In this document: positions 5,277-57,832 of the stretch, one piece after another
How positions within the stretch are numbered: position 1 is the first letter of the stretch
Layout of the letters: the number at the start of each line of letters is the position of its first letter
Source of the DNA: Candidatus Omnitrophota bacterium
GTDB lineage: Bacteria; Omnitrophota; Gorgyraeia; Gygaellales; Profunditerraquicolaceae
Length of the DNA: 64,000 bases
Direction of reading: 5' to 3'
Assembly: GCA_028715415.1 (NCBI GenBank)
Contig: JAQURX010000006.1
Span: forward strand, 8,505 to 72,504
Position numbers and translations under genes: made by a program
Notes under the pieces: model-generated
Seen by the model: the letters and a program-made list of their open reading frames with translations, nothing else
Told to the model about the DNA's origin: nothing
Database searches by the model: none

Positions 5277-7169
5277 ATGTCTTTAATCAGTATCCAAGAA
5301 GCTACTCTTAGATTCAGCGGCCCGCTTATTTTTGATCATTTGAATCTGCAGCTAGAGCCCGGGGAGCGTATTGCCTTGCTTGGCCGAAACGGCGCAGGCA
5401 AGACTACGCTTATGAAAATAATGACTGGCCAGCTTGAGCTTGATAGCGGGAAAATAATTTTTCAAAAAGGCATTCAGGTTACGCATCTGCCGCAGGAAGT
5501 CCCGGTTGATATGGAAGGAAGTGTTTTTGATATCGTCCTTTCTGGTTTGGGTGCTCGCGCCAATTTATTAAGCCAGTACCATCATGTTACCCATCGTCTT
5601 CATAGGGAACACACTCCGGAATTATTAAAACAACTTGACGATCTCCAGGCAGAGTTGGACCATACCAATAGTTGGGATGTTAACAATCAGGTTGAGAATG
5701 TTATTGGCAAGATGAAACTTGACGGGGATATGGATTTTAAGAGCCTTTCCGGAGGACAAAAACGCAGGGTGTTTTTAGCCCGGGCTCTTGTTTTAAGGCC
5801 TGAAGTTTTGCTCCTTGACGAACCCACCAATCATTTAGATATTGATTCAATTAATTGGCTGGAGGGATTTCTTTCCAGCTATCCGGGAACAATTTTCTTT
5901 GTTACCCATGACCGGTTATTTATGACGCACTTAGCAACAAGGATTGTTGAGCTTGACCGTGGAAGGATTTTTAGCTGGGCATGCGATTATAATACTTTTC
6001 TTGAGCGCAAACAAGCGGCATTGGATATTGAAGAATCAGAGTGGAATCATTTTGATAAAAAATTAGCCGAGGAAGAGATTTGGATTCGTAAAGGAGTTAA
6101 GGCCAGAAGGTGCCGTAATGAAGGCAGGGTTAAGGCTCTGGAACGCTTAAGAGAATTAAAGAAAACTCAGCGTAAGCAGGAAGGCCTTGTGCGTATGCGC
6201 GCACAAAAGTCAGTTCTTTCCGGACACCGGGTGATTAAAGCAGTTCAACTTAATTTTGCTTATGATGATAAGTGTTTGATTAGGGATTTTTCTACCCGGA
6301 TCATGCGGCAGGATAAAATCGGAGTGATTGGCCCTAATGGCAGCGGCAAAACTACACTGCTGCGGATTTTACTTGGGAAGCTTAGCCCCCAAAGAGGAAA
6401 AGTTGTTTTGGGGACAAATCTAGAAATTGCTTATTATGACCAGCTGCGCGAGCAGTTGGATGAAGATAAGACGGTTGCCGAGAATATAAACGGAGAGAGT
6501 GAAACTATAATCATTAACGGCAAACCTAGGCATATCTTGGGATATTTACAGGATTTCCTTTTTGCTCCTGACCGCGCGCGTACGCAGATAAAGGTGCTCT
6601 CTGGAGGGGAACGCAACCGTTTATTTCTTGCAAAGTTATTTTCCAAGCCTTCTAACGTGCTGGTAATGGATGAGCCTACTAATGATTTGGATATTGAGAC
6701 TTTAGAACTTCTGGAAGAATTGCTTCTTGATTATCCCGGAACGCTGCTTTTAGTCAGCCACGACAGGGCATTTCTAAATAACGTGGTAACTTCAACGATT
6801 GTTTTAGAAGGAGAAGGTGTCATTAAGGAATATCCCGGAGGCTATGATGATTGGTTGAATCAGCGGCAGCCAATAGCAAAGCCTACGCCTGTAAAAAATA
6901 AAATCAAGAAAGAACCTGTAATAAAAGCAAAACCTATTGTTCCGCGAAAGCTTAATTTTAAAGAGCAGCAGGAATTAGATAAACTCCCTTTAATGATTGA
7001 GCAGTTGGAAGAGGAACAAAAAACGCTCTACAATTTATTTGAAGATATTTCTTTTTACCAGCGCCCTCCTGAGGAAATCAGCCAAACCAAAGCCAGGTCC
7101 GAATCTCTGTCTGAGCAGCTTCAAGCAGCATATGACCGGTGGGATTATTTGGCAGAATTGGCAGAGTGA
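5277..7169 (+). CDS. ABC-F family ATPase (Uup/EttA-like, two ABC domains plus C-terminal coiled coil)
   Basis: 630 aa. Two Walker A motifs (GRNGAGKTT, GPNGSGKTT) and two LSGG signatures, with no TM segments. C-terminal charged coiled coil as in Uup. Confidence 0.85.
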   Translation: MSLISIQEATLRFSGPLIFDHLNLQLEPGERIALLGRNGAGKTTLMKIMTGQLELDSGKIIFQKGIQVTHLPQEVPVDMEGSVFDIVLSGLGARANLLSQYHHVTHRLHREHTPELLKQLDDLQAELDHTNSWDVNNQVENVIGKMKLDGDMDFKSLSGGQKRRVFLARALVLRPEVLLLDEPTNHLDIDSINWLEGFLSSYPGTIFFVTHDRLFMTHLATRIVELDRGRIFSWACDYNTFLERKQAALDIEESEWNHFDKKLAEEEIWIRKGVKARRCRNEGRVKALERLRELKKTQRKQEGLVRMRAQKSVLSGHRVIKAVQLNFAYDDKCLIRDFSTRIMRQDKIGVIGPNGSGKTTLLRILLGKLSPQRGKVVLGTNLEIAYYDQLREQLDEDKTVAENINGESETIIINGKPRHILGYLQDFLFAPDRARTQIKVLSGGERNRLFLAKLFSKPSNVLVMDEPTNDLDIETLELLEELLLDYPGTLLLVSHDRAFLNNVVTSTIVLEGEGVIKEYPGGYDDWLNQRQPIAKPTPVKNKIKKEPVIKAKPIVPRKLNFKEQQELDKLPLMIEQLEEEQKTLYNLFEDISFYQRPPEEISQTKARSESLSEQLQAAYDRWDYLAELAE

Positions 7170-9463: not shown

Positions 9464-10738
9464 TTGAGAAAAGAAAGGATTAATGGTGTTGTCAAAGTAA
9501 AAGAAAAGGTAAACTTTATAAACAAAGTTTCATCTTTTACTGTTCTTGGCGATCCCGGATGTGATGGGCTTGGTGTAGAGATAATGACTACTTTTGCAAA
9601 AGCAATGAGTTGTACGCATACAGATTTTAAGATTATTTTGGGTGATCTTGTCCCATTTGGGCTGGAAGAGTTTTATAAACACATTTACGGAATTATAAAT
9701 AATGTATCTCCAAATCGTGTCTATACTTTATGCGGCAATCATGATACTGATTATTACGTAACATATTTTGGCCTGAAGAATTATATATTGGTAAACGATG
9801 ACTTATTGGTTGTTGTTCTGGATAATTCAAAAAGATTTTTTGAAGCCGAAACTCTCGATTTCCTTGATGAATCTTTAAAAGGCTATAAGCGTAAAAATAT
9901 ACTGATATTATTCCATATCCCTCCTCCGAACAATTTCTCTACCAATAGCATGAAGGTTGAAGAATGGCGGAAGTTAAAACCGATTTTGGATCCCTACAAA
10001 AATAATATCAGGTATATACTCGCAGGGCATGTTCATTCTTTTTTTGAGGATAATTTAGATGGTTATAAGATAATCGTATCAGCCGGAGGCGGGGCAAGGC
10101 TGGAATTTTTTGGCCGTTTACCAGATAAGAATAGTTCATTTCATCATGTATTAAGGTTCTACTTTGATAAGAATTCCAGGTTGCAATATGAATACATGTC
10201 GCTAGCAGATGTATCATATGGCCGCGAGATCAAAAACAAGAAAATTGAAAAATATCTTGATGAGGCTTTTCGAAACGAAGCAATGGCACATATCCGTTAT
10301 CAATTTTTTGCAGATGATGCGCATGAAAAGGGTTTTATCGGGATAGAAAAACTTTTTTTGGCATTATCCAAGTCGGCTTTTTTTCATGCGAAGAATTATT
10401 TTAGTATTCTAAATAATCTGCAGGGTATTGGGCATAATCTTAAATTGAGCCGGAAGATTGAAAAAGCAGATACAGCTGAGCTTCTTTTAAAATATCTACC
10501 GTATTCTATCAAAGCAAATTTGCCTTTAGCCCGGTATGCGTTCGGCGAGGCATATGGTGCAAAAAATAACTATTCCGGATTATTGCCGGAAGCAATTAAA
10601 GCTTATAGTAAAGGAGAAGATATAGGCCAATATGGCTATTATGTATGCACATCTTGTGGCAATACGGGACGGCTTGAGGGTGAACTGGAGCATTGTCCTA
10701 TATGCGGCGCTCCTTTAGACAAGATTATCAGAATGTAA
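9464..10738 (+). CDS. Fusion protein: calcineurin-like metallophosphoesterase + degenerate rubrerythrin-like four-helix domain + rubredoxin-like zinc ribbon
   Basis: TTG start 7 nt after AGGAGG. MPE motifs GDPGCDG, GDLVPFG, GNHD and GHVHSF. Then EAMAHIRYQFFADDAHEKGF (compare [23 protein letters not shown] in the genuine rubrerythrin at 36805), but several diiron ligands are substituted. C-terminal YYVCTSCG ... CPICG. Confidence 0.7.
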   Translation: MRKERINGVVKVKEKVNFINKVSSFTVLGDPGCDGLGVEIMTTFAKAMSCTHTDFKIILGDLVPFGLEEFYKHIYGIINNVSPNRVYTLCGNHDTDYYVTYFGLKNYILVNDDLLVVVLDNSKRFFEAETLDFLDESLKGYKRKNILILFHIPPPNNFSTNSMKVEEWRKLKPILDPYKNNIRYILAGHVHSFFEDNLDGYKIIVSAGGGARLEFFGRLPDKNSSFHHVLRFYFDKNSRLQYEYMSLADVSYGREIKNKKIEKYLDEAFRNEAMAHIRYQFFADDAHEKGFIGIEKLFLALSKSAFFHAKNYFSILNNLQGIGHNLKLSRKIEKADTAELLLKYLPYSIKANLPLARYAFGEAYGAKNNYSGLLPEAIKAYSKGEDIGQYGYYVCTSCGNTGRLEGELEHCPICGAPLDKIIRM

Positions 10739-10753
10739 AATAAGGAGAATAAA

Positions 10754-10879
10754 ATGGCTGTTGAGAAAACAGGAGAGAAGTATAGGTGTAATGTTTGCGG
10801 TAATGAGGTTGTTGTAACAAAGGTTGGCGGCGGAGAACTTGTTTGTTGCGCTCAAGCGATGGAAAAAATCGAAGGGTAA
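10754..10879 (+). CDS. Desulforedoxin-like small Fe(Cys)4 protein (41 aa)
   Basis: MAVEKTGEKYRCNVCGNEVVVTKVGGGELVCCAQAMEKIEG, with the same Cys spacing as D. gigas desulforedoxin (..YKCELCGQVV ... GGGTLVCCGEDM..). AAGGAG RBS. Confidence 0.65.
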   Translation: MAVEKTGEKYRCNVCGNEVVVTKVGGGELVCCAQAMEKIEG

Positions 10880-48404: not shown

Positions 48405-48545
48405 TAAAAGTAAAATAAAGTAAGTTTGAGTAAGTAGAAATTTAAAGAATAGGTAGTTTAAAGTAAGTTTGAGTAAATCTAGTGATACATAAGTATATGA
48501 AAATAGGTAACTATGAGTAAGTTTGAGTAAGTATTGAAAACTAGC
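48405..48545 (+). repeat. Three degenerate tandem units (about 45-55 nt), each beginning AGTAAGTTTGAGTAA(G/A)T and containing AATAGGTA
   Basis: Read directly from the sequence: copies at about 48418, 48461 and 48516 in an AT-rich spacer with no ORF. Confidence 0.6.
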
Positions 48546-48635: not shown

Positions 48636-48896
48636 TTGAGATTATAGGACAAGGGAAATCAGTAAATGCTGATGCGGTCCCGCCGCTGTAACCTAAGTAC
48701 TTTTTGAAAGAAAAGTAAACTTTTGGCAAGAGATAAAGCCACTGTCAAAAAATTTGATGGGAAGGTAAGCCAAAAGTGTTTAGGAAGCCAGAAGACCTGC
48801 CTATAAAAAAGTAACTCCTCGTGGAAAGGGCTAAGAATAATATTAGGGTGAAGCCTTTGATGACAAATTTAGTCGTCAGAGGCTTTCTTTTTTAAG
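48636..48896 (+). promoter_or_regulatory. Cobalamin (AdoCbl) riboswitch with terminator expression platform
   Basis: AAGGGAA, GCGGTCCCGCCGCTGTAA, GCCACTG, GGGAAGG and the B12 box AGCCAGAAGACCTGCC all present in the canonical order. GAAGCCTTTGATGAC ... GTCGTCAGAGGCTTT hairpin plus T6 at 48849-48896. Confidence 0.9.
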
Positions 48897-48918: not shown

Positions 48919-49755
48919 ATGAAGAAGCTATTAATATTATTGATTCCGTTGGTTTTTTTAGTATCAAAGGCACAAGCTGGAGAAAGATATATTTCTCTAG
49001 CGCCTTCAACAACAGAAATTCTTTTTGCGCTTGGCCTTGAATCAGAAATCGTTGGAGTAAGCACTTTTTGCAATTATCCTCCGGAGGCTAAGAATAAAGA
49101 AAAGGTAGGAGATTTTAGTTATCCTAATCTGGAAAAAATAGCTTCTTTAAATCCGGATTATGTTTTTTGCACCGGATTAGAACAGGCACCGGTTATTAAT
49201 GAATTAAAAAGGCTAAAATTAAATTTTTATGTTGCTGATCCGGTAAATATTCAGGAGCTTTTTGAAACGATTAACGATATCGGTAAAATTACGGGAAAGC
49301 ATAATGAAGCAGCTAAGCTGATTGAGAAAATGAAATCTGAAGTTGATGGGGTGATTGCTCAATCAAAGAATATCCCGCAGGAAAAGAGGCTCGGAGTTTT
49401 TGTTGAGATTTGGCATGAACCGCTTATGACCGCGGGGAAAGGCTCCTTAGTTGACGAATTAATTACGCTTGCAGGTGGAATTAATATTGCGCATGATGTA
49501 CCGCGGCCATATTGTATTTTTAGTGCTGAGAAAGTAATTAGTTTTAATCCCCAATGCATTATATTGGCTTACATGGATAAAGAATCCCCGATAAAACTTG
49601 TTGAATCGCGGTTTGGCTGGAAGAATATAGATGCTGTTAAGAATAAAAGAGTGTTTAATGACATTGACCCAGATTTATTCCTGCGGCCCGGCCCAAGGAT
49701 TACTATTGGCTTAAAAGCTTTGTTTAATAAATTATATCCCAATGAAAAAAATTAA
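48919..49755 (+). CDS. btuF: Periplasmic cobalamin/siderophore-type substrate-binding protein (BtuF-like)
   Basis: Signal peptide. 278 aa, class III SBP. Context: the riboswitch and cob genes. Confidence 0.8.
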   Translation: MKKLLILLIPLVFLVSKAQAGERYISLAPSTTEILFALGLESEIVGVSTFCNYPPEAKNKEKVGDFSYPNLEKIASLNPDYVFCTGLEQAPVINELKRLKLNFYVADPVNIQELFETINDIGKITGKHNEAAKLIEKMKSEVDGVIAQSKNIPQEKRLGVFVEIWHEPLMTAGKGSLVDELITLAGGINIAHDVPRPYCIFSAEKVISFNPQCIILAYMDKESPIKLVESRFGWKNIDAVKNKRVFNDIDPDLFLRPGPRITIGLKALFNKLYPNEKN

Positions 49756-50698
49756 ATTAAAATTCAGCATTATTTTCTTGTTTCTAATATTGGTTATTGT
49801 AATTATCCTTGGTTTAGTTAAAGGCGCGGTGGATATCCCGTTAACCAAGTTATTGTTTAAGGAGAATCAAGCTATTTTGAACATGCGTTTATTGCGGGTT
49901 TTAACAGCGCTTCTTGTGGGAAGCGGACTTGCTGTCTCGGGGATTGCTTTACAGGCAGTTTTAAGGAACCCTTTGGCAGAGCCATATCTGTTGGGCACTT
50001 CAAGTGGAGCGGGCCTTGCTGCAGTGATTGCGGTTATTTTGGGGATTTCAAGAATCTATATGCCTTTAGCTGCTTTTTTGGGGGCAGTTGTAAGTATAGT
50101 AATTGTCTATAATCTGGCAAGCGAAGGCAAGAGAATCTCCAGCAATTCTTTAATCCTTTCCGGAGTGATTATCTCTATAGCATTTTCCGCGGTTATCGTT
50201 TTTCTTGTTTCAATATTCGGTAATGAGGCTATGCATGAGGTGTCTTGGTGGCTCTGGGGAAGTTTACAGGTCTATGATTATAAATTAATCCTTTTAGTTT
50301 CTTTTCCGGTGTTATTGGGGATAGCTGCGATTTACTTCTTTGCTCAGGATTTAAACGCAATCAGCATGGGCGAAGAAGAGGCAATGCATCTTGGTATAGA
50401 TGCGCAAAATATAAAGAAGATTTTAATTTTGATAACTGCTTTGATAACTGCAAGCTTGATTTGTATATGCGGGATTATCGGTTTTGTTGGTTTGATTGTC
50501 CCCCATATGATGCGTAGGGTTGTTGGGCCTAATCATAAGGTGCTTATCCCGATTACTTGTTTGGCTGCGGCGATTTTTATGGTTGTCTGCGACCTTTTGT
50601 CGCGGACTATTTTTGCTCCGATTGAAATTCCTATAGGAGTTATTACTGCTATCATCGGGACGCCTGTATTTGTTGTTTTGTTGAAGAAGAGAGTTTAA
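49742..50698 (+). CDS. btuC: FecCD-family ABC permease (BtuC-like)
   Basis: About 9-10 TM helices. Overlaps the btuF end. Confidence 0.85.
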   Translation: MKKIKLKFSIIFLFLILVIVIILGLVKGAVDIPLTKLLFKENQAILNMRLLRVLTALLVGSGLAVSGIALQAVLRNPLAEPYLLGTSSGAGLAAVIAVILGISRIYMPLAAFLGAVVSIVIVYNLASEGKRISSNSLILSGVIISIAFSAVIVFLVSIFGNEAMHEVSWWLWGSLQVYDYKLILLVSFPVLLGIAAIYFFAQDLNAISMGEEEAMHLGIDAQNIKKILILITALITASLICICGIIGFVGLIVPHMMRRVVGPNHKVLIPITCLAAAIFMVVCDLLSRTIFAPIEIPIGVITAIIGTPVFVVLLKKRV

Positions 50699-50706
50699 TA
50701 TTCATC

Positions 50707-50898
50707 TTAATGTTTCGGCATTTTTGCTGTAGGCGCATTAGAAAATTTTTGGCACAGCTATTAACATTAGTGCGCAAGGATTTACGAGCAGCGAAGGACA
50801 GCTATATAAGAACGCTAAGCCGTAGCGACGAAGTAAACCGCAGCGCACGGCAAAAATTTTCAGCGCCGGAAGCGAAAATGCCGAAACACAACATCAGT
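50707..50898. repeat. About 190-bp intergenic element bounded by 14-nt perfect inverted repeats (TGTTTCGGCATTTT / AAAATGCCGAAACA), MITE-like
   Basis: Inverted repeats at 50711-50724 and 50885-50898. Internal AGCGAAG-type motifs. Begins TTAATGTTTCGGCATTTTT, which resembles the ends of the element at 52811-53340. No credible ORF. Confidence 0.55.
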
Positions 50899-50906
50899 TT
50901 AATATT

Positions 50907-51707
50907 ATGGAATCTTTATTAAAAATTAAGAATCTTACCGGTGGATATTACAAAGAAGATATTGTCAGGGATATATCTTTGGAAGTTAACCGCCGTGATT
51001 TTGTAGGGATTATCGGGCCGAACGGAAGCGGGAAGACTACGCTTCTTAGGTTTGCAACAAGGATTCTGGCTCCAAGAAGCGGAGAGATTACTTTTGAAGA
51101 TAAAAACATCTTTGATATGAATTTAAAGGAATTCTGTCAAAAGGTCGCATTTGTTTCTCAGGATATTCCCATTGATTTCTCTTATAGCGTAATGGAGTTT
51201 GTGCTGATGGGAAGAATCCCGCATTTGCAACGCCTGCAGTTTGAGACAAAAAAAGATTTTGAGATTGTTCAAAACGCCCTTGAATTAACTGATGCGGTTT
51301 ATTTGAAAGATAAAAGAATTGATGAGTTAAGTTCAGGAGAACGCCAGCGTTTAATTATCGCAAGAGCGCTTGCGCAAGAACCAACCCTTTTATTCCTGGA
51401 TGAGCCGACATCGCATCTGGATATTGGACATCAGATACAGGTGTTAGATCTTTTAAAGAGGCTCAACCAGAAAAACAATTTAACAATTATAATTGTTTTG
51501 CATGATCTTAATCTTGCAAGTGCATATTGTAACCGTATTGTTCTGCTTGATAGCGGCAAAACTTTTAAAATTGGTCCTCCCGAAGAAGTGTTAACTTATC
51601 AGAATATCGAAGCAGTTTATAAAACAGTGGTTTTGGTAAACGATAACCCTTTGACACATAAACCAAATGTTGTTTTGGTGCCGGGAGATGTTAAACGTGG
51701 CAACTAA
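50907..51707 (+). CDS. btuD: ABC transporter ATPase (BtuD/FecE-like)
   Basis: Walker A GPNGSGKTT, LSSGERQR signature and Walker B LLFLDEPT. No SD upstream, since the element abuts the start. Confidence 0.85.
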   Translation: MESLLKIKNLTGGYYKEDIVRDISLEVNRRDFVGIIGPNGSGKTTLLRFATRILAPRSGEITFEDKNIFDMNLKEFCQKVAFVSQDIPIDFSYSVMEFVLMGRIPHLQRLQFETKKDFEIVQNALELTDAVYLKDKRIDELSSGERQRLIIARALAQEPTLLFLDEPTSHLDIGHQIQVLDLLKRLNQKNNLTIIIVLHDLNLASAYCNRIVLLDSGKTFKIGPPEEVLTYQNIEAVYKTVVLVNDNPLTHKPNVVLVPGDVKRGN

Positions 51708-52293
51708 AATAGTCTTAATTAGGCACGGTGTCACCAGATGGAATAAAGAAAAGCGTTATTGTGGGTGTATGGATATAGGTTTGAGCAAAGAAGGCAAAGC
51801 TCAGGCTGAAAAATTAAAAAAGCATCTTTCCGGAAATAAATTCCATAAAATATATTCCAGTGACCGAAAACGCGCACTTCAAACCGCAAAGATAATCTTT
51901 AAAGGTTTAAAGCTTATACAAGTTAAGGGTTTGCGCGAAATGAGCTTTGGCGTCATGGAGGGGTTAAGGCATGATGATATTCTAAAGAAGTATCCAAAAG
52001 AATACAGCCGTTGGTTAGAGAATCCTTTTAAATATAATATTCCTAAAGCAGAAGCACTGGTTGATTTCAAAAAAAGGGTAAACTGTGCTATTAGAAAGAT
52101 TGTTGATTCTAACCGGGGGAAGACTGTTGCTGTTGTTTGTCACGGAGGAGCAATCGGAATATTTGTTACAGGAATCCTAAAGAAGAAAGATTTTTGGCGC
52201 CATGTCCCCAAGACTACTAGTGTTACCATTGTTGAATTTATGAAAAATAAACCAAAGATAAAATTATTTAATGCTGCAAGCCATTTGGAGTAA
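51688..52293 (+). CDS. cobC: Alpha-ribazole-5'-phosphate phosphatase (histidine phosphatase family)
   Basis: LIRHGVTRWN (the RHG motif). GGGAG RBS before the ATG at 51688. Sits inside the cob cluster. Confidence 0.75.
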   Translation: MLNVATKIVLIRHGVTRWNKEKRYCGCMDIGLSKEGKAQAEKLKKHLSGNKFHKIYSSDRKRALQTAKIIFKGLKLIQVKGLREMSFGVMEGLRHDDILKKYPKEYSRWLENPFKYNIPKAEALVDFKKRVNCAIRKIVDSNRGKTVAVVCHGGAIGIFVTGILKKKDFWRHVPKTTSVTIVEFMKNKPKIKLFNAASHLE

Positions 52294-52299
52294 TTAATA

Positions 52300-52815
52300 A
52301 TGAGCAAAATTATTTTAATTTTAGGCGGGGCAAGGAGCGGAAAGAGCTCTTATGCTGTGAGTTTAGCGAAAAAGTTTAAAAAGATAGCTTTTGTTGCTAC
52401 ATGCGAAGGATTGGATAGGGAAATGAGAAAACGCATTGAGCTGCATAAGAAAGATAGGCCTAAAAATTGGAAGACTTATGAAGAGCCAAGAAATGTTTCA
52501 GAAGCAATAAAGAAAATTGACAATTCATTCGATTGTATCCTTATAGATTGCTTGACGCTTTTAGTTTCAAATTTAGTTTTAAATAAATTTAATCAGGAAA
52601 AAATCATTAAAGCAATTCAGGAGATGTTGGTTGATTTAAAGAAAAAGAAAGCAACTGTGATAATTGTTTCCAATGAAGTCGGATTAGGAATTGTCCCTGC
52701 AACTAAATTAGGAAGAGAGTTTCGTGATATAGCCGGCAGGGTTAATCAGGTTGTAGCAAAAGAAGCTGACAAAGTGTTCTTTACGGTTTCCGGAATAGCA
52801 ACATGTATTAAATGA
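52300..52815 (+). CDS. cobU: Adenosylcobinamide kinase / adenosylcobinamide-phosphate guanylyltransferase
   Basis: P-loop ILILGGARSGKSSYA. 171 aa, as for CobU/CobP. Confidence 0.85.
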   Translation: MSKIILILGGARSGKSSYAVSLAKKFKKIAFVATCEGLDREMRKRIELHKKDRPKNWKTYEEPRNVSEAIKKIDNSFDCILIDCLTLLVSNLVLNKFNQEKIIKAIQEMLVDLKKKKATVIIVSNEVGLGIVPATKLGREFRDIAGRVNQVVAKEADKVFFTVSGIATCIK

Positions 52816-53340
52816 ATCTGCCGTCTTTAAAGCTTGAATTTTAGTGTTTGCTTTCGGCGCTGAAAATTTTTGCCGTGTGTTCTTTAATGAATCTGTCGTT
52901 TTTCTCGCTCAGGTCGATTTTTTAACGGCAAAGGTCTCTCGTATTTTGGCGGCTGCTGAACTCGTCGCATTTGCTCTAGCAAATGCTCCTCGGACAGCAT
53001 CGCCGTCCCGATATTGTCCCGCCCTGTCGGTCGGGACATCGGGATTCCCAAAATACTCGAGCATGCTTTGCCTAAAATCGACATTCGCTCGAATAAGCGA
53101 CAGATTCATTTATAATAGTAAGAGTTTCAGCAGATGGCTTGGCTTTTGTTTTATCGGGGCCTCCGAGGATGCCGAGCGGGCACGGATGCCCAGCTAAATA
53201 GAAAGTAGGCAGAGCGAGGCACCGCAGGGGAGCGAAATTTTGCCTCGCAGGGGCAAAATAAGCGTCCCCGAGAAAACAAAAGACAAGACAGACGCGTAAG
53301 AAATAAGTTGAATTAATCAAGAAGAATAATAAATAGTCAA
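52811..53340. mobile_element. About 530-bp non-coding insert, noticeably G+C-richer than its flanks: three copies of AATGAATCTGYCG (two direct, one inverted) bounding a 226-bp unit with nested GC-rich hairpins, plus a second structured about 230-nt segment
   Basis: Motif copies at 52811-52828 (overlapping the cobU stop), 52885-52903 and inverted at 53097-53110. Hairpin TCCCGAT-att-GTCCCG-ccctgtcggt-CGGGAC-ATCGGGA at about 52999-53044. GCGAGG ... CCTCGC and GGGCA ... TGCCC stems at 53170-53270. No RBS-supported ORF. Confidence 0.5.
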
Positions 53341-53355
53341 AATATAGGAGATTAA

Positions 53356-54414
53356 ATGAAGGTAATTAATGAGATAATTTCAAATATAAGCGGTATTGAT
53401 CAAGAGTTGGTCAAGAAGACTCAAGCGAGATTAGATAACCTAACTAAGCCTCTTGGAAGCTTAGGCAGGTTAGAAGAATTAGCAAAACAGATTTGCGGGA
53501 TTACAGGTAAGGATTATCCGGTATTGGGGAATAAAGTTATTTTTACTCTTGCTGCTGATCATGGAGTTACTGATGAGGGAGTAAGCGCGTATCCAAAAGA
53601 AGTTACGGCACAGATGGTTTACAATTTTCTTGCAAATGGAGCAGCAATAAATGTTTTGGCAAACCATGTTGGTGCCCGCGTTGTGGTAGCTGATGTTGGA
53701 GTTGTAAGTGAGCTTAAGCCAAACCCAAGGTTACTAATTAAGAAAGTAAATAATGGCACTAAGAATATGGCAAAAGGCCCTGCTATGACAAAAGAAGAGG
53801 CGATCAAAGCAATAACTACCGGAATAGGAATATTTGAAGATGAATTTAAGCGCGGAGCAGACATAGTTGGAACAGGCGAGATGGGGATAGGGAACACTAC
53901 GGCAGCAAGTGCAATTACTGCTTGTTTTATAAAGCAGTCGATTGAAGAGATAACAGGCCGTGGTGCGGGCTTAGATGATAAAGGGTTAAAAAATAAAGTT
54001 GAAATCATTAAAAAAGCGCTTTTAGTAAACAAGCCTGATTCCAGTGACGCAATTGATGTTTTATCAAAGGTAGGAGGTTTTGAGATTGGAGGGCTTGTAG
54101 GAATAATTCTCGCTGCTTCTTCTAAAAAGATACCGATAGTAATTGATGGGTTTATTTCGGGAGCTGCCGCACTTATTGCTTATAAGCTTGAGCCTAAAGT
54201 TAAAGATTATATGATAGCTGCGCATAAATCAGTTGAAGGGGGGCATAGGTTTATTCTGGATTATATCGGATTAAAACCTCTCATTGATTTGGATTTAAGG
54301 TTAGGCGAGGGAACCGGAGGGGCGCTTGGTATAGGATTAGCTGATGCTGCAATCAAGATCCTTACTCAAATGGCGACCTTTGAAAGCGCTAATGTTTCCG
54401 AAAGGGGTAAGTAA
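53356..54414 (+). CDS. cobT: Nicotinate-nucleotide--dimethylbenzimidazole phosphoribosyltransferase
   Basis: 352 aa with GTGEMGIGNTT and the family-typical glycine-rich segments. AGGAG RBS. Confidence 0.88.
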   Translation: MKVINEIISNISGIDQELVKKTQARLDNLTKPLGSLGRLEELAKQICGITGKDYPVLGNKVIFTLAADHGVTDEGVSAYPKEVTAQMVYNFLANGAAINVLANHVGARVVVADVGVVSELKPNPRLLIKKVNNGTKNMAKGPAMTKEEAIKAITTGIGIFEDEFKRGADIVGTGEMGIGNTTAASAITACFIKQSIEEITGRGAGLDDKGLKNKVEIIKKALLVNKPDSSDAIDVLSKVGGFEIGGLVGIILAASSKKIPIVIDGFISGAAALIAYKLEPKVKDYMIAAHKSVEGGHRFILDYIGLKPLIDLDLRLGEGTGGALGIGLADAAIKILTQMATFESANVSERGK

Positions 54415-55169
54415 TGAGTAGATTTTTATTAGCTTTACAGTTTTTGACTATTTTCCCCATAAAGATCAAAAGTGTTTCTGTGAAAAAACTGTCAGGGTCT
54501 CTTATTTATTTCCCGGTTGTAGGTTTAGTAATCGGATTGATGCTTGCGGCGTTATATACTCTGTTGATTAATTTAGATTTTACTTCATTTGCAACAAGTG
54601 TTATCACAGTGATTGCGCTAATTATTATTACCGGAGGAATGCATTTTGATGGCCTTGCTGATACTTTTGATGCTTTATTAAGCGTAAGATCAAAGGAAGA
54701 AATGTTGCGTATTATGCGTGATCCTCATATTGGAGTTATGGGGGTGTTAAGTATTATAAGTATTGTTATTCTAAAGATCGGATTGTTATCTTCAATTGAT
54801 GTTGAAAATACAATCAAAGCTATTATTTTGATGTGTGCACTTGGCAGGTGGTCGGCAGTATTCCTCATGTTTAATTTTCCATATGCGCGCAGTGAAGGGA
54901 AAGCAAAAGTTTTTATTGATGGGATGAATTTAAATATCTTTACGCTTTCTGCAGCTATAGTTATTTTAATTTCCGCGGCAATCTGGCAGGCAAAAGGATT
55001 ATTAATTTTATTAGTTATGACAGGGGTTGTCTATTTATTCGGCTTGCTGACTAAGAAAAAAATAGGAGGAATTACCGGAGATACATTAGGCGCTGGGATT
55101 GAATTGGCTGAGTGCGCCATTTTATTTAGTTTTATAATATTGGAAAGGAATTGCCAATGGATAAATTAA
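54414..55169 (+). CDS. cobS: Cobalamin-5'-phosphate synthase (adenosylcobinamide-GDP ribazoletransferase)
   Basis: Polytopic membrane protein with a GGMHFDGLADTFDAL motif. Confidence 0.85.
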   Translation: MSRFLLALQFLTIFPIKIKSVSVKKLSGSLIYFPVVGLVIGLMLAALYTLLINLDFTSFATSVITVIALIIITGGMHFDGLADTFDALLSVRSKEEMLRIMRDPHIGVMGVLSIISIVILKIGLLSSIDVENTIKAIILMCALGRWSAVFLMFNFPYARSEGKAKVFIDGMNLNIFTLSAAIVILISAAIWQAKGLLILLVMTGVVYLFGLLTKKKIGGITGDTLGAGIELAECAILFSFIILERNCQWIN

Positions 55170-55831
55170 CAGCAATATCGTCTTGGAGCGGGGGAAAGGA
55201 TAGTTGTTTAGCTTGTTATAAAGCAATTAAACAAGGCTACAAGATAAAGTGCCTCCTTAATTTTATCTCACGGGAATCCCAGCGTGGCTGTTTTCATGGG
55301 ATTGAAGGAAGGCTTCTTAAGCATCAGGCGGATTTGGTGGGGATTCCTTTGGTGCAAAAAGAAGTTAGCCCTGACATGAAAGAATATGAGGAAGAATTTA
55401 AAGAGGCGGTTAATGATATAAGAGGAAGTGAAATTGCCTCAATGGTATTCGGGGATATCTATCTTCTTGAACATGAGAGTTGGGTGGAGCGTGTTTGTGG
55501 AGATTTAAAAATTAATGCTGTTGAGCCGTTATGGGAAAATAATCCCGAGAAAATAATTGATGAATTTTTGGATGCTGGGTTTAAGGCGGTTATTGTAAGT
55601 TGTAAAGCGGATATCATGGGAAAAGAATTCCTTGGCCGCCAAATTGATAAAAAACTAGTTGAGGAATTAAAAAAGAAAGGAGCGTGCCCTTGTGGTGAGA
55701 ATGGGGAATATCATACATTAGTAATTGACGGGCCTATATTTAAAAAGCCAATTGAAATAGTTGAGGCCCAACCAATTTTAAAAGAAGGGTTTTGGAAACA
55801 CTGGTTTTTGGATATTAAAAAATTCAATTAA
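55151..55831 (+). CDS. PP-loop ATP pyrophosphatase of the Dph6/MJ0570 (ATP_bind_4, diphthine-ammonia ligase-like) family
   Basis: SWSGGKDSCLA PP-loop. About 226 aa. Overlaps the cobS end, so it is translationally coupled inside the cob operon. Confidence 0.65.
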   Translation: MPMDKLTAISSWSGGKDSCLACYKAIKQGYKIKCLLNFISRESQRGCFHGIEGRLLKHQADLVGIPLVQKEVSPDMKEYEEEFKEAVNDIRGSEIASMVFGDIYLLEHESWVERVCGDLKINAVEPLWENNPEKIIDEFLDAGFKAVIVSCKADIMGKEFLGRQIDKKLVEELKKKGACPCGENGEYHTLVIDGPIFKKPIEIVEAQPILKEGFWKHWFLDIKKFN

Positions 55832-55981
55832 CTTTTTTTGAGAAGAAAAGCCGGATAGATGAAGGAAGTCTTGGTGTAAGCCCAAGCGCTGTCGCGCAAC
55901 GGTAAATCTCTTTTAGGGATAAGCCCGGTCGATCATCTATCATAAGGAAAGTACTCTCGCATGAAGAGAAAGGATTTAAGA

Positions 55982-57832
55982 ATGAAAAAATATTTAATAG
56001 CGCTGGTAGTGTCTTGCATTTTATCCCTCCCTGGTTATCTAAAGGCAGAAGATGTTAATCTAAATAAGATTGTTGTAACTGCTTCAAGGATTGAAGAGTC
56101 TTCCGGAGATATCGGACGCACTATTGATGTGGTCACTTCAAAGGATATAGAAAAAAGCGGGTCGCAAGACTTGGCAGACGCCATTACTAACCTTACTTCT
56201 GTTGATATAAGTAATTATGGCGGGCCTAATGCTACAAAGACAATTAGGATGCGAGGATCTACTGGTGCCCAGGTCCTAGTTTTGATGGACGGCAGGCCGA
56301 TAAATAATCCTAGGGATGGCGAAGTTGATTTTTCAACTATACCATTAGACAATGTATCCAGGGTTGAGGTCATGCATGGCCCCGGTTCAAGCCTATACGG
56401 AAGTTCTGCTATGGGAGGAGTGGTTAATATTATTACTAAGAATCCGCCTAGAGAAGGGCAGAAGGCTGAAATTTACTCTAGTTTTGGCACCCGCCGGACG
56501 TATATTGAACGTATGCTTTATGGGGCAAAGGCTCCAAAATTAGGCTTTCTTATCAGTGGAGGCTATCAAAGCTCTGAGGGTTTCCGTGAGAATTCCACGC
56601 TTAATGCCAAAGATTGCAATCTTAAATTAGGGTATGATTTAAACAGTGAAAATAATTTAAGCCTGAATTCCGGTTTTTATAAAAGCAGGGTGGGTGTGCC
56701 CTATAAGGTTTCTACTCCTGATTTAGAAGATAAGCAAAATACCTTGAATCGTTTTTTTGATTTTAGCTGGAATTTTAAGCCTGATACCAAGACTACTTTA
56801 TTAGCTAAGGTTTATCAGAATTATGATAGATTGGAATTTTTGGATTTTTCATCAGGCTATAGCAATAAAAGTATCCATGGAACCACGGTAAGAGGGGGAG
56901 ACTTACAGTTTGAAAAACAATTATTAGATTTATACCGTTTGGTCTGCGGGTTTAATTATGTCAAGAATATGAATGATAGTACTGCCACTGCAAAACATAA
57001 ATATGATGTTACGGCAGGGTATTTGCAGAACCATTTTGATCTTTTTGATAAACTAAAGATTAATTTGGGTGCCAGAATAGATAATTATTCTAACTTTGGC
57101 ACGCAATTTAACCCTAACCTCGATTTTCTTTATACCTTAAACGAAGCTATAAAACTGCATGGTTTAGTAAGCCGTTCATTCCGCGCCCCCACTTTTAATG
57201 ATTTATATTGGCCAAGGACAGATTACTATTACTATGGGTTTTGGGTTGGAGGAGAGGAAGGAGACCCGAATTTAAAGCCGGAAAAAGGGGTAACTGAAGA
57301 ACTCGGGGTTGAAACAAAATTAAATAAATATATCACTTCGGGTTTGACTTATTACCATAGCGATTATGACCAACTTATCCAGTGGTCAGATGATGGAAGC
57401 GGAATGTGGAGGCCACAGAATGTAAGCTCTGCTTCAATCAATGGTATAGAATTTGAAAACTTGGTAGATATTTCTGATAAGTTTGGATTGGGTATTAATT
57501 ATACATTTTTAATGGCAAGAGATAAGAAAACCCATAAGTACCTTGTCTACCAGCCAGAGAATAAAATTGACTCTTCTTTGAAGTATAATGACCATAATGG
57601 GCTGACTGCTGAACTAAAGAGCCAATTTACAGGCGTGAGATTTAATGATGCTAACAATACAGGTAAGGTAAAGAGTTTTTTTGTTTTGGGGCTAAATGTA
57701 TCAAAGAAGTTTAAGTCAGGCTTAACTTATTTTGCATACATAGATAATCTTTTAAACCGTAAATATCAGGTTCAATCTGGTTTTCCTATGCCCGGATTTT
57801 CCTTTACTGGTGGGGTTAAAGCCGAATTTTAG
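55982..57832 (+). CDS. btuB: TonB-dependent outer-membrane receptor (BtuB-like)
   Basis: AAAGGA RBS then ATG at 55982. Signal peptide. TonB-box-like NKIVVTASR. Plug plus 22-strand barrel length. C-terminal ..KAEF. Confidence 0.85.
   Translation: MKKYLIALVVSCILSLPGYLKAEDVNLNKIVVTASRIEESSGDIGRTIDVVTSKDIEKSGSQDLADAITNLTSVDISNYGGPNATKTIRMRGSTGAQVLVLMDGRPINNPRDGEVDFSTIPLDNVSRVEVMHGPGSSLYGSSAMGGVVNIITKNPPREGQKAEIYSSFGTRRTYIERMLYGAKAPKLGFLISGGYQSSEGFRENSTLNAKDCNLKLGYDLNSENNLSLNSGFYKSRVGVPYKVSTPDLEDKQNTLNRFFDFSWNFKPDTKTTLLAKVYQNYDRLEFLDFSSGYSNKSIHGTTVRGGDLQFEKQLLDLYRLVCGFNYVKNMNDSTATAKHKYDVTAGYLQNHFDLFDKLKINLGARIDNYSNFGTQFNPNLDFLYTLNEAIKLHGLVSRSFRAPTFNDLYWPRTDYYYYGFWVGGEEGDPNLKPEKGVTEELGVETKLNKYITSGLTYYHSDYDQLIQWSDDGSGMWRPQNVSSASINGIEFENLVDISDKFGLGINYTFLMARDKKTHKYLVYQPENKIDSSLKYNDHNGLTAELKSQFTGVRFNDANNTGKVKSFFVLGLNVSKKFKSGLTYFAYIDNLLNRKYQVQSGFPMPGFSFTGGVKAEF

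Follow-up and report, generated by a model that had tools for sequence, protein, structure and literature searches.

Why would a bacterium keep a relative of the diphthine-ammonia ligases among its genes for vitamin B12 salvage, downstream of a cobalamin riboswitch? This question is raised by a 64,000-nucleotide stretch of DNA from a Candidatus Omnitrophota bacterium (assembly GCA_028715415.1, contig JAQURX010000006.1, positions 8,505 to 72,504 of the forward strand), hereafter called the window, in which a plus-strand gene at 55157–55831 encodes a PP-loop protein and is located between cobS and btuB. Our analysis indicates that this protein is very probably a B12-salvage-associated ATP pyrophosphatase of the DUF71-B12 subgroup. 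In what follows, loci and proteins from other genomes are referred to by L and P numbers, respectively.

The open reading frame (ORF) extends from 55151 to 55831 with TTG as its first listed codon, and the probable start is the ATG at 55157, two codons further on and directly preceded by GGAAAGGA. The 224 residues encoded from this ATG are identical to those of the public protein P0001 from a metagenome-assembled genome of Candidatus Omnitrophica/Omnitrophota (100% identity, 100% coverage). The original prediction, made by reading the sequence, had recognized an SGGKDS PP-loop of the ATP_bind_4 family and proposed a hidden Markov model search against PF01902. This search gave a full-length match (E=1.4e-56, 191.9 bits for a cut-off of 23.2) in which residues 7–223 align end to end with positions 4–217 of the 219 of the profile, and SGGKDS is found at residues 11–16 (55187–55204). 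PF01902 is the Diphthami_syn_2 family, formerly ATP_bind_4/DUF71, which comprises the MJ0570/Dph6-like proteins of COG2102. At E<=1e-3 no other Pfam family was recovered in the protein, be it the CbiA nucleotide-binding domain, the GATase_3 domain or the CbiZ family. The sequence observation is correct, far beyond chance.

Structure prediction leads to the same assignment. The nearest solved structures are those of two archaeal Dph6 proteins, PH1257 (2d13, E=8e-27) and PF0828 (3rjz, E=6e-25), and an AlphaFold2 model built from 53 diverse homologues (predicted local distance difference test score of 96.6) matches their two-domain fold with template modelling (TM) scores of 0.83–0.86 against 2d13 and 3rjz/3rk1 in Foldseek. 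Members of other PP-loop families (3k32, TtuA, MnmA, QueC, and TilS) reach TM scores of at most 0.46, and the superpositions of TtuA, MnmA, and QueC on the model have root-mean-square deviations above 5 Å. The possibility that the protein belongs to the QueC or tRNA thiolase families, named at the outset as one that would overturn the proposal, is excluded, and the Pfam and fold searches together rule out QueC, TtuA, MnmA, ThiI, and TilS. Furthermore, S11, G12, G13, K14, D15, H47, and T187 are invariant or at least 90% conserved across 53 members (31–56% identity), H47 and T187 being the counterparts of His48 and Thr189, which contact ATP in PF0828. Since the residues of the ATP site are conserved, the adenylating chemistry is retained.

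A division of DUF71/COG2102 into Dph6 and DUF71-B12 was proposed by de Crécy-Lagard et al. (2012, Biol Direct 7:32, PMC3541065), the second group taking in all bacterial members and the second archaeal copies, with PF0295 as an example. In that work, the motif of bona fide Dph6 is EGGE/DxE188 and that of DUF71-B12 is ENGE[F/Y]H, the residues predicted to contact elongation factor 2 (EF-2) are not conserved in DUF71-B12, and 75 of 102 DUF71-B12 genes adjoin B12 transporter genes while 18 of 102 adjoin cbiB (PMC3541065). The window protein carries GENGEYHT at residues 180–187 (55694–55717), which fits the DUF71-B12 signature, and in HMMER alignments its His186 stands opposite the Glu of AGEGGEFET in both PH1257 and PF0828. 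With Dph6 (EC 6.3.1.14; PF0828, PH1257, and yeast YLR143w), it shares the fold, about 28% identity, the ATP-binding residues, and probably the adenylate-then-ammonia chemistry, but it differs by the presence of His186 instead of Glu188 and of an Asn instead of a Gly of EGGE. With the DUF71-B12 subgroup, it has in common the PF01902 domain, SGGKDS, ENGE[F/Y]H, a bacterial host, and clustering with btuFCD and cob genes, and nothing substantive sets it apart; the window protein thus agrees with the published subgroup in every sequence and context criterion. What distinguishes it from the examples of 2012 is its origin in Omnitrophota, a phylum outside the sample of that time, and its place in a cobU-type operon devoid of cbiB and having a second riboswitch before btuB.

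The His-type motif is widespread among relatives. Searched exhaustively, a set of 1.84 billion cluster representatives yielded 4577 matches, and essentially all of the best 150 normal-length ones among them, once aligned, display GExGE[F/Y]H[T/S]. In a neighbor-joining tree, which is a rough distance tree with two Pyrococcus Dph6 sequences as its only outgroup, these two sequences lie on a long branch apart from 80-odd His-type sequences including that of the window.

We then considered the genomic context of these relatives. One genome per GTDB species was scanned with the family motif, giving at least 599 relatives, of which the best 80 loci were kept; the counts given here are over 79 loci. 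The 80 loci originate from Omnitrophota, Planctomycetota, Lentisphaerota, Atribacterota, Dehalococcoidia, Nitrospirota, Desulfobacterota, Bacteroidota, Clostridium, Fusobacteriaceae, Acidobacteriota, anaerobic methanotrophic archaea (ANME)/Methanosarcinales, Bathyarchaeia, and Thermoplasmata. Their ORFs were labeled by jackhmmer starting from the window proteins and Pfam-verified seeds, and a locus was regarded as B12-linked when at least one of btuF/C/D/B, cobA/U/T/S/C, cbiB, cbiP, or cobD occurred within five genes. So defined, linkage is found in 50 of the 79 loci, from about 10 phyla, with a B12 gene directly adjacent to the DUF71-B12 gene in 35, and transporter genes are the commonest partners. 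Linkage is denser in the clade formed in the tree by the window and L001–L007 (7/8). The association with cob and btu genes, on which the original prediction had staked its case, therefore extends to the orthologues. Indeed, the Omnitrophota loci L001–L004 and L006 repeat the gene order of the window exactly, synteny is also kept in L082, and a leader Cobalamin riboswitch is present in all seven related Omnitrophota-type loci tested; L001 has in addition an AdoCbl riboswitch before btuB (10681–10823).

Enzymes of amide synthesis also appear in these neighborhoods. CbiP neighbors DUF71-B12 in seven of the 79 loci, of the salvage type, and the CbiP of L079 has both the CbiA and the GATase_3 domain; in Clostridium, the order is cobS-cobU-cobC-cbiB-cobD-btuFCD-DUF71-cbiP. 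A glutaminase-less protein resembling Asn synthase is a neighbor in four loci. In the window itself, phmmer searches with seeds found no CbiP, CbiB, CobD aminotransferase, or CobA over the 64 kb, and neither cbiB nor cbiZ is present within the same limits. The absence of the CobB/CobQ enzymes, put forward at first as a reason for thinking of an alternative amidating enzyme, is hence correct for the window but does not hold as a general trait, given the CobQ/CbiP neighbors of orthologues. Lastly, L006 (7663–8388 and 10251–10943) and L022 each carry a pair of DUF71-B12 paralogues that belong to different clades and stand on either side of btuB, and five paralogues are described in Dehalococcoides CBDB1 (PMC3541065).

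The operon of the window provides the regulatory frame, and all its genes are on the plus strand, mostly abutting or overlapping. Its leader contains a Cobalamin riboswitch aptamer (RF00174, 48593–48818; Rfam 65.6 bits, E=5.7e-14) followed by a terminator-like hairpin and T-run on the same strand (48850–48895, hairpin at 48850–48886, a 15-pair stem then CTTTTTT), which is the probable expression platform of this first riboswitch. Next come genes for a BtuF-like periplasmic corrinoid-binding protein (48919–49755; PF01497, E=4e-29, with BtuF as the best NCBIfam match, under cut-off), a BtuC-like ATP-binding cassette (ABC) permease (49742–50698; PF01032 FecCD, E=2.5e-87), and a BtuD-like ABC ATPase (50907–51707; PF00005, E=1.2e-30, the best NCBIfam match being a corrinoid ABC transporter ATPase). 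They are followed by genes for nucleotide-loop assembly, namely a cobC-like gene for alpha-ribazole phosphatase (51667–52293; PF00300, E=9.7e-56; TIGR03162, 144 bits, slightly under cut-off), cobU for adenosylcobinamide kinase/guanylyltransferase (52300–52815; PF02283, E=1.7e-59; NF004469, 198.5 bits for a cut-off of 161), cobT for nicotinate-nucleotide:5,6-dimethylbenzimidazole phosphoribosyltransferase (53356–54414; TIGR03160, 449.5 bits for a cut-off of 319), and cobS for cobalamin-5'-phosphate synthase (54414–55169; PF02654, E=2.2e-53; TIGR00317, 127.7 bits for a cut-off of 110).

As first described, the PP-loop gene overlaps cobS and precedes btuB: its start lies 13 nucleotides inside cobS, which suggests translational coupling, and the sequence from cobS to the stop of the PP-loop gene contains no terminator-like site. 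Right after its stop codon begins a second riboswitch, of the AdoCbl type (RF01482, 55836–55980, plus strand; Rfam 53.2 bits for a gathering score of 50). On its 3' side, this riboswitch extends into the ribosome-binding region of btuB and overlaps the start region of this gene, which encodes a BtuB-like TonB-dependent receptor (55961–57832, with an alternative ATG at 55983; Plug and TonB_dep_Rec_b-barrel domains, the best NCBIfam matches being TonB-B12 and BtuB, under cut-offs). Because this riboswitch is interposed, btuB has its own control and the PP-loop gene closes the unit governed by the first riboswitch, although btuB may also be transcribed by read-through from that unit. A further tier of corrinoid control thus acts on the uptake receptor within what looks like a single transcription unit. 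Of the initial description, a riboswitch-led operon running from btuFCD through cobCUTS to the PP-loop gene is therefore upheld, while the inclusion of btuB in the same control unit is not.

Which reaction, then, would such a protein perform? Dph6, its only characterized relative, amidates a carboxylate by way of an acyl-adenylate with ATP and free NH3. In chemical terms, it is most economical to suppose that the protein amidates a carboxylate of a salvaged corrinoid with ATP and ammonia, a reading that we advance tentatively and with somewhat less than even confidence. The riboswitch-controlled operon ties expression of the gene to corrinoid scarcity, together with the functions of uptake and nucleotide-loop assembly. 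According to this reading, the enzyme would bind an imported corrinoid that is incompletely amidated or deamidated, ATP would adenylate one of its side-chain carboxylates with release of pyrophosphate, and free ammonia would displace AMP to restore the carboxamide, after which CobU, CobT, CobS, and CobC would complete the repaired corrinoid. As in Dph6, the enzyme would take free ammonia without an intermediary, since there is no glutaminase domain or partner. The family-invariant His186, in place of the catalytic Glu188 of Dph6, would mark the changed substrate.

CbiP is the glutamine-dependent b,d,e,g-amidating enzyme, and its presence beside DUF71-B12, like that of the Asn synthase-like protein, fits an amidation role, while the occurrence of paralogues suits a substrate with several carboxylates. 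The amidotransferases CbiA/CobB and CbiP/CobQ make corrinoid amides with ATP (six primary amides), but they do so with an unrelated MinD/ParA-type P-loop fold joined to a GATase_3 glutaminase; their intermediate is phosphoryl, not adenylyl, and they require glutamine. NadE and the C-terminal domain of AsnB are alike in adenylating a carboxylate at an SGGxDS loop before ammonia attack; they belong, however, to other PP-loop families and act on small molecules unrelated to corrinoids. We regard the amidation idea of the original prediction as a sensible refinement that improves on the published guess, though it is not in itself new evidence. A broader version, to which we give a slightly lower probability still, is that DUF71-B12 proteins are ATP/NH3-dependent side-chain amidoligases repairing deamidated or under-amidated corrinoids acquired from the environment, with paralogues covering different side chains and the invariant His contacting the corrinoid, possibly its cobalt.

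Several points weigh against corrinoid amidation. A review published in 2016 by the group of the 2012 paper still lists DUF71-B12 as 'function unknown', our literature search found no experimental characterization of DUF71-B12 after 2012, and the papers citing the 2012 work either have it in their reference lists only or repeat 'function unknown'. The authors of 2012 themselves favored a role in pseudo-B12 metabolism similar to that of CbiZ on the basis of anticorrelation (PMC3541065). The reading further assumes that deamidated corrinoids matter to these organisms as a nutrient source, and the counts of gene order rest on crude ORF calling and jackhmmer labels. Finally, 29 of the 79 His-type loci have neither B12 genes nearby nor a cobalamin riboswitch detectable with Rfam. 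In the tree, most of them sit in four separate clades (Methanosarcinales/ANME, Cytophagia-Flavobacteriia, most Chitinophagaceae, and a mixed one), and the lack of an Rfam riboswitch means that those clades are really unlinked locally. In view of these 29 loci, the His-type subgroup may not be monofunctional.

Among the other explanations, the best surviving one, albeit unlikely, is the CbiZ-like or pseudo-B12 remodeling role, in which the enzyme would remove or help replace the lower-ligand/aminopropanol arm and provide cobyric acid for CbiB. It draws on a phyletic pattern, namely strict anticorrelation with bacterial CbiZ, from which the role was proposed as one of complementarity, and co-occurrence with CbiB (PMC3541065). 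Our survey offers it some comfort: CbiZ is not among the recurrent families in a pooled Pfam scan of 131 unlabeled neighbors, a scan in which single-member families are unlisted, and CbiB and CobD are neighbors in 8–10 loci as well as in the Omnitrophota locus L082. The full conservation of the PP-loop and ATP-site residues, on the other hand, points to adenylation and ligation rather than to hydrolysis. CbiZ itself, an adenosylcobinamide/pseudo-B12 amidohydrolase, belongs to an unrelated family and catalyzes an ATP-independent hydrolysis in the opposite direction. In the published record of 2012, a reviewer remarked that superfamilies of amidoligases have hardly ever been turned into amidohydrolases, and the authors conceded that no sequence change indicated a hydrolase (PMC3541065). 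Moreover, the operon of the window and those of its closest relatives have cobU and lack cbiB and cobD, so that cobyric acid, the product of a CbiZ-like reaction, would lack an evident enzyme nearby to take it further. The cobU-type operon of the window is in this respect a mild argument against the published idea, and a weak one because L082, also from Omnitrophota, does have cbiB and cobD in its operon.

A second alternative, rather improbable in our estimation, is that the enzyme is an amine ligase of the f side chain that would adenylate cobyric acid and attach aminopropanol (or its phosphate) or another amine, thereby aiding or replacing CbiB. PP-loop adenylate chemistry can accept amines, cbiB was not found in the 64-kb window, and 18 of 102 members adjoin cbiB (PMC3541065). 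Yet DUF71-B12 occurs with cbiB and cobD in the same operons (L017, L037, L042, L047, L075, L079, and L082), which shows that it is not a simple replacement of CbiB, and the cobU of the window needs no such step for cobinamide.

The substrate could also be the carboxylate of a peptide or protein, as in Dph6, the candidate being a small peptide, CbpA, encoded with the radical S-adenosylmethionine (SAM) enzyme CbpB; we consider this more improbable again. EF-2 diphthine, the ancestral substrate, is protein-bound, and DUF71-B12 comes directly after cbpA-cbpB in L006, L024, L042, and L082. Nevertheless, cbpAB is present in only 6 of the 79 DUF71-B12 loci and is missing from the window, and three of four independently sampled cbpAB loci are without DUF71. 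As each occurs in loci lacking the other, the two modules are separable.

Finally, a genuine diphthine-ammonia ligase has a negligible probability: the name 'diphthine--ammonia ligase' of P0001 in its public NCBI record and TIGR03679, the Dph6 equivalog, as the best NCBIfam match speak for it, but the latter scores 158.2 bits under a cut-off of 197.3, ENGEYH replaces EGGE/DxE188, the host is bacterial, and the gene is part of a B12 operon under riboswitch control. Bacteria are not known to have the EF-2 diphthamide pathway. The score, the motif, and the host together rule this identity out, and the NCBI name, which most of these bacterial proteins bear, is wrong for them and represents a systematic over-annotation. 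A few newer NCBI records of relatives read 'Dph6-related ATP pyrophosphatase'.

If corrinoid amidation is favored over these alternatives, how new would it be? The framing of the gene as a new B12 function has been pre-empted, given that the DUF71-B12 subgroup, the motif that defines it, and its proximity to btuFCD and cbiB were all published in 2012 (PMC3541065). The window gene is a further member of this known and biochemically uncharacterized subgroup, from a phylum not sampled then. It brings no new principle, and its value is that of a clear-cut case from Omnitrophota, set in a cobU-type operon that lacks cbiB. The interest of the subgroup lies elsewhere. Most microbes requiring B12 cannot make it, so that the salvage route decides who uses which corrinoids, and DUF71-B12 is among the few recurrent riboswitch-controlled salvage genes whose reaction has no demonstration. 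Should re-amidation of damaged corrinoids prove true, corrinoid carboxylic acids would have to be reckoned among the vitamin precursors that microbes can use, and estimates of B12 availability in anoxic sediments, groundwater, and guts would change. It would amount to an undemonstrated step of B12 salvage, widespread in salvagers of sediment and groundwater such as Omnitrophota, Dehalococcoidia, Nitrospirota, and ANME.

The cbpA-cbpB pair deserves a description of its own. In related loci, a gene for a Lys-rich peptide of 33–45 residues immediately precedes that of a radical SAM/SPASM enzyme. The enzyme scores 514 bits with NCBIfam TIGR04163 ('peptide-modifying radical SAM enzyme CbpB'). The peptide genes are located at 6120–6254 in L006, 1274–1381 in L024, about 4440–4545 in L042, and about 7445–7600 in L047, and the translated peptides of these four loci have the core [YL]RxKCx(3-5)GL[SA]H[YF] in common. 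Genes for 33–35 residues are called in the same position in L082 (6878–6985), L083 (2984–3091), L084 (6813–6914), and L085 (6847–6954). The pair often follows the glutaminase-less gene resembling Asn synthase and is found in salvage as well as de novo cobalamin operons, with or without DUF71-B12, one of the loci without DUF71 being a de novo cbi operon; its hosts are Omnitrophota, Elusimicrobiota, Armatimonadota, Nitrospirota, and Desulfobacterota. A literature search found no paper on a CbpA/CbpB-type peptide module. The pair may constitute an uncharacterized module of B12 metabolism akin to those of ribosomally synthesized and post-translationally modified peptides.

Other arrangements of His-type proteins were encountered. 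Five PF01902 fusions (P0124, P0214, P0260, P0248, and P0238) associate the domain with DUF4116, a SAM methyltransferase, a GNAT acetyltransferase, or a PF04071 Cys-rich domain. Their size varies, P0124 having 2455 residues and P0214 having 523, and one DUF4116-repeat fusion is a multidomain protein of 2455 residues. The fusions to the methyltransferase, GNAT, and DUF4116 are uninformative on function, and the PF04071 domain of P0238 may be related to B12. In Chitinophagaceae, a DUF71-B12 homologue is divergently paired with a DUF6580 membrane protein in five loci (L057 and L071–L074), and a B12 riboswitch is absent from the four of them that were scanned (L057 and L072–L074). This pairing may correspond to a different functional context for the His-type subfamily.

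The operon of the window also contains two insertions, between btuC and btuD (50699–50906) and between cobU and cobT (52816–53355), which have no counterpart in the syntenic L001, the genes there adjoining directly. Both share a 31-nucleotide segment in opposite orientation (50846–50876 and 52847–52877; 94%), of which these are the only two copies in the window, and each has internal inverted repeats. The ORFs 50710–50922 and 52844–53197 within them gave no family match in Pfam or NCBIfam and are treated as non-genes. The insertions look like a structured repeat element or one resembling a miniature inverted-repeat transposable element. Further upstream, at 48405–48530, three direct copies of a unit of about 29 nucleotides ending in AGTAAGTTTGAGTAA succeed one another with spacings of 43 and 54 nucleotides. 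These copies occupy an AT-rich region just upstream of a promoter-like site and of the first riboswitch, and they might form a regulator-binding array or be merely low-complexity sequence.

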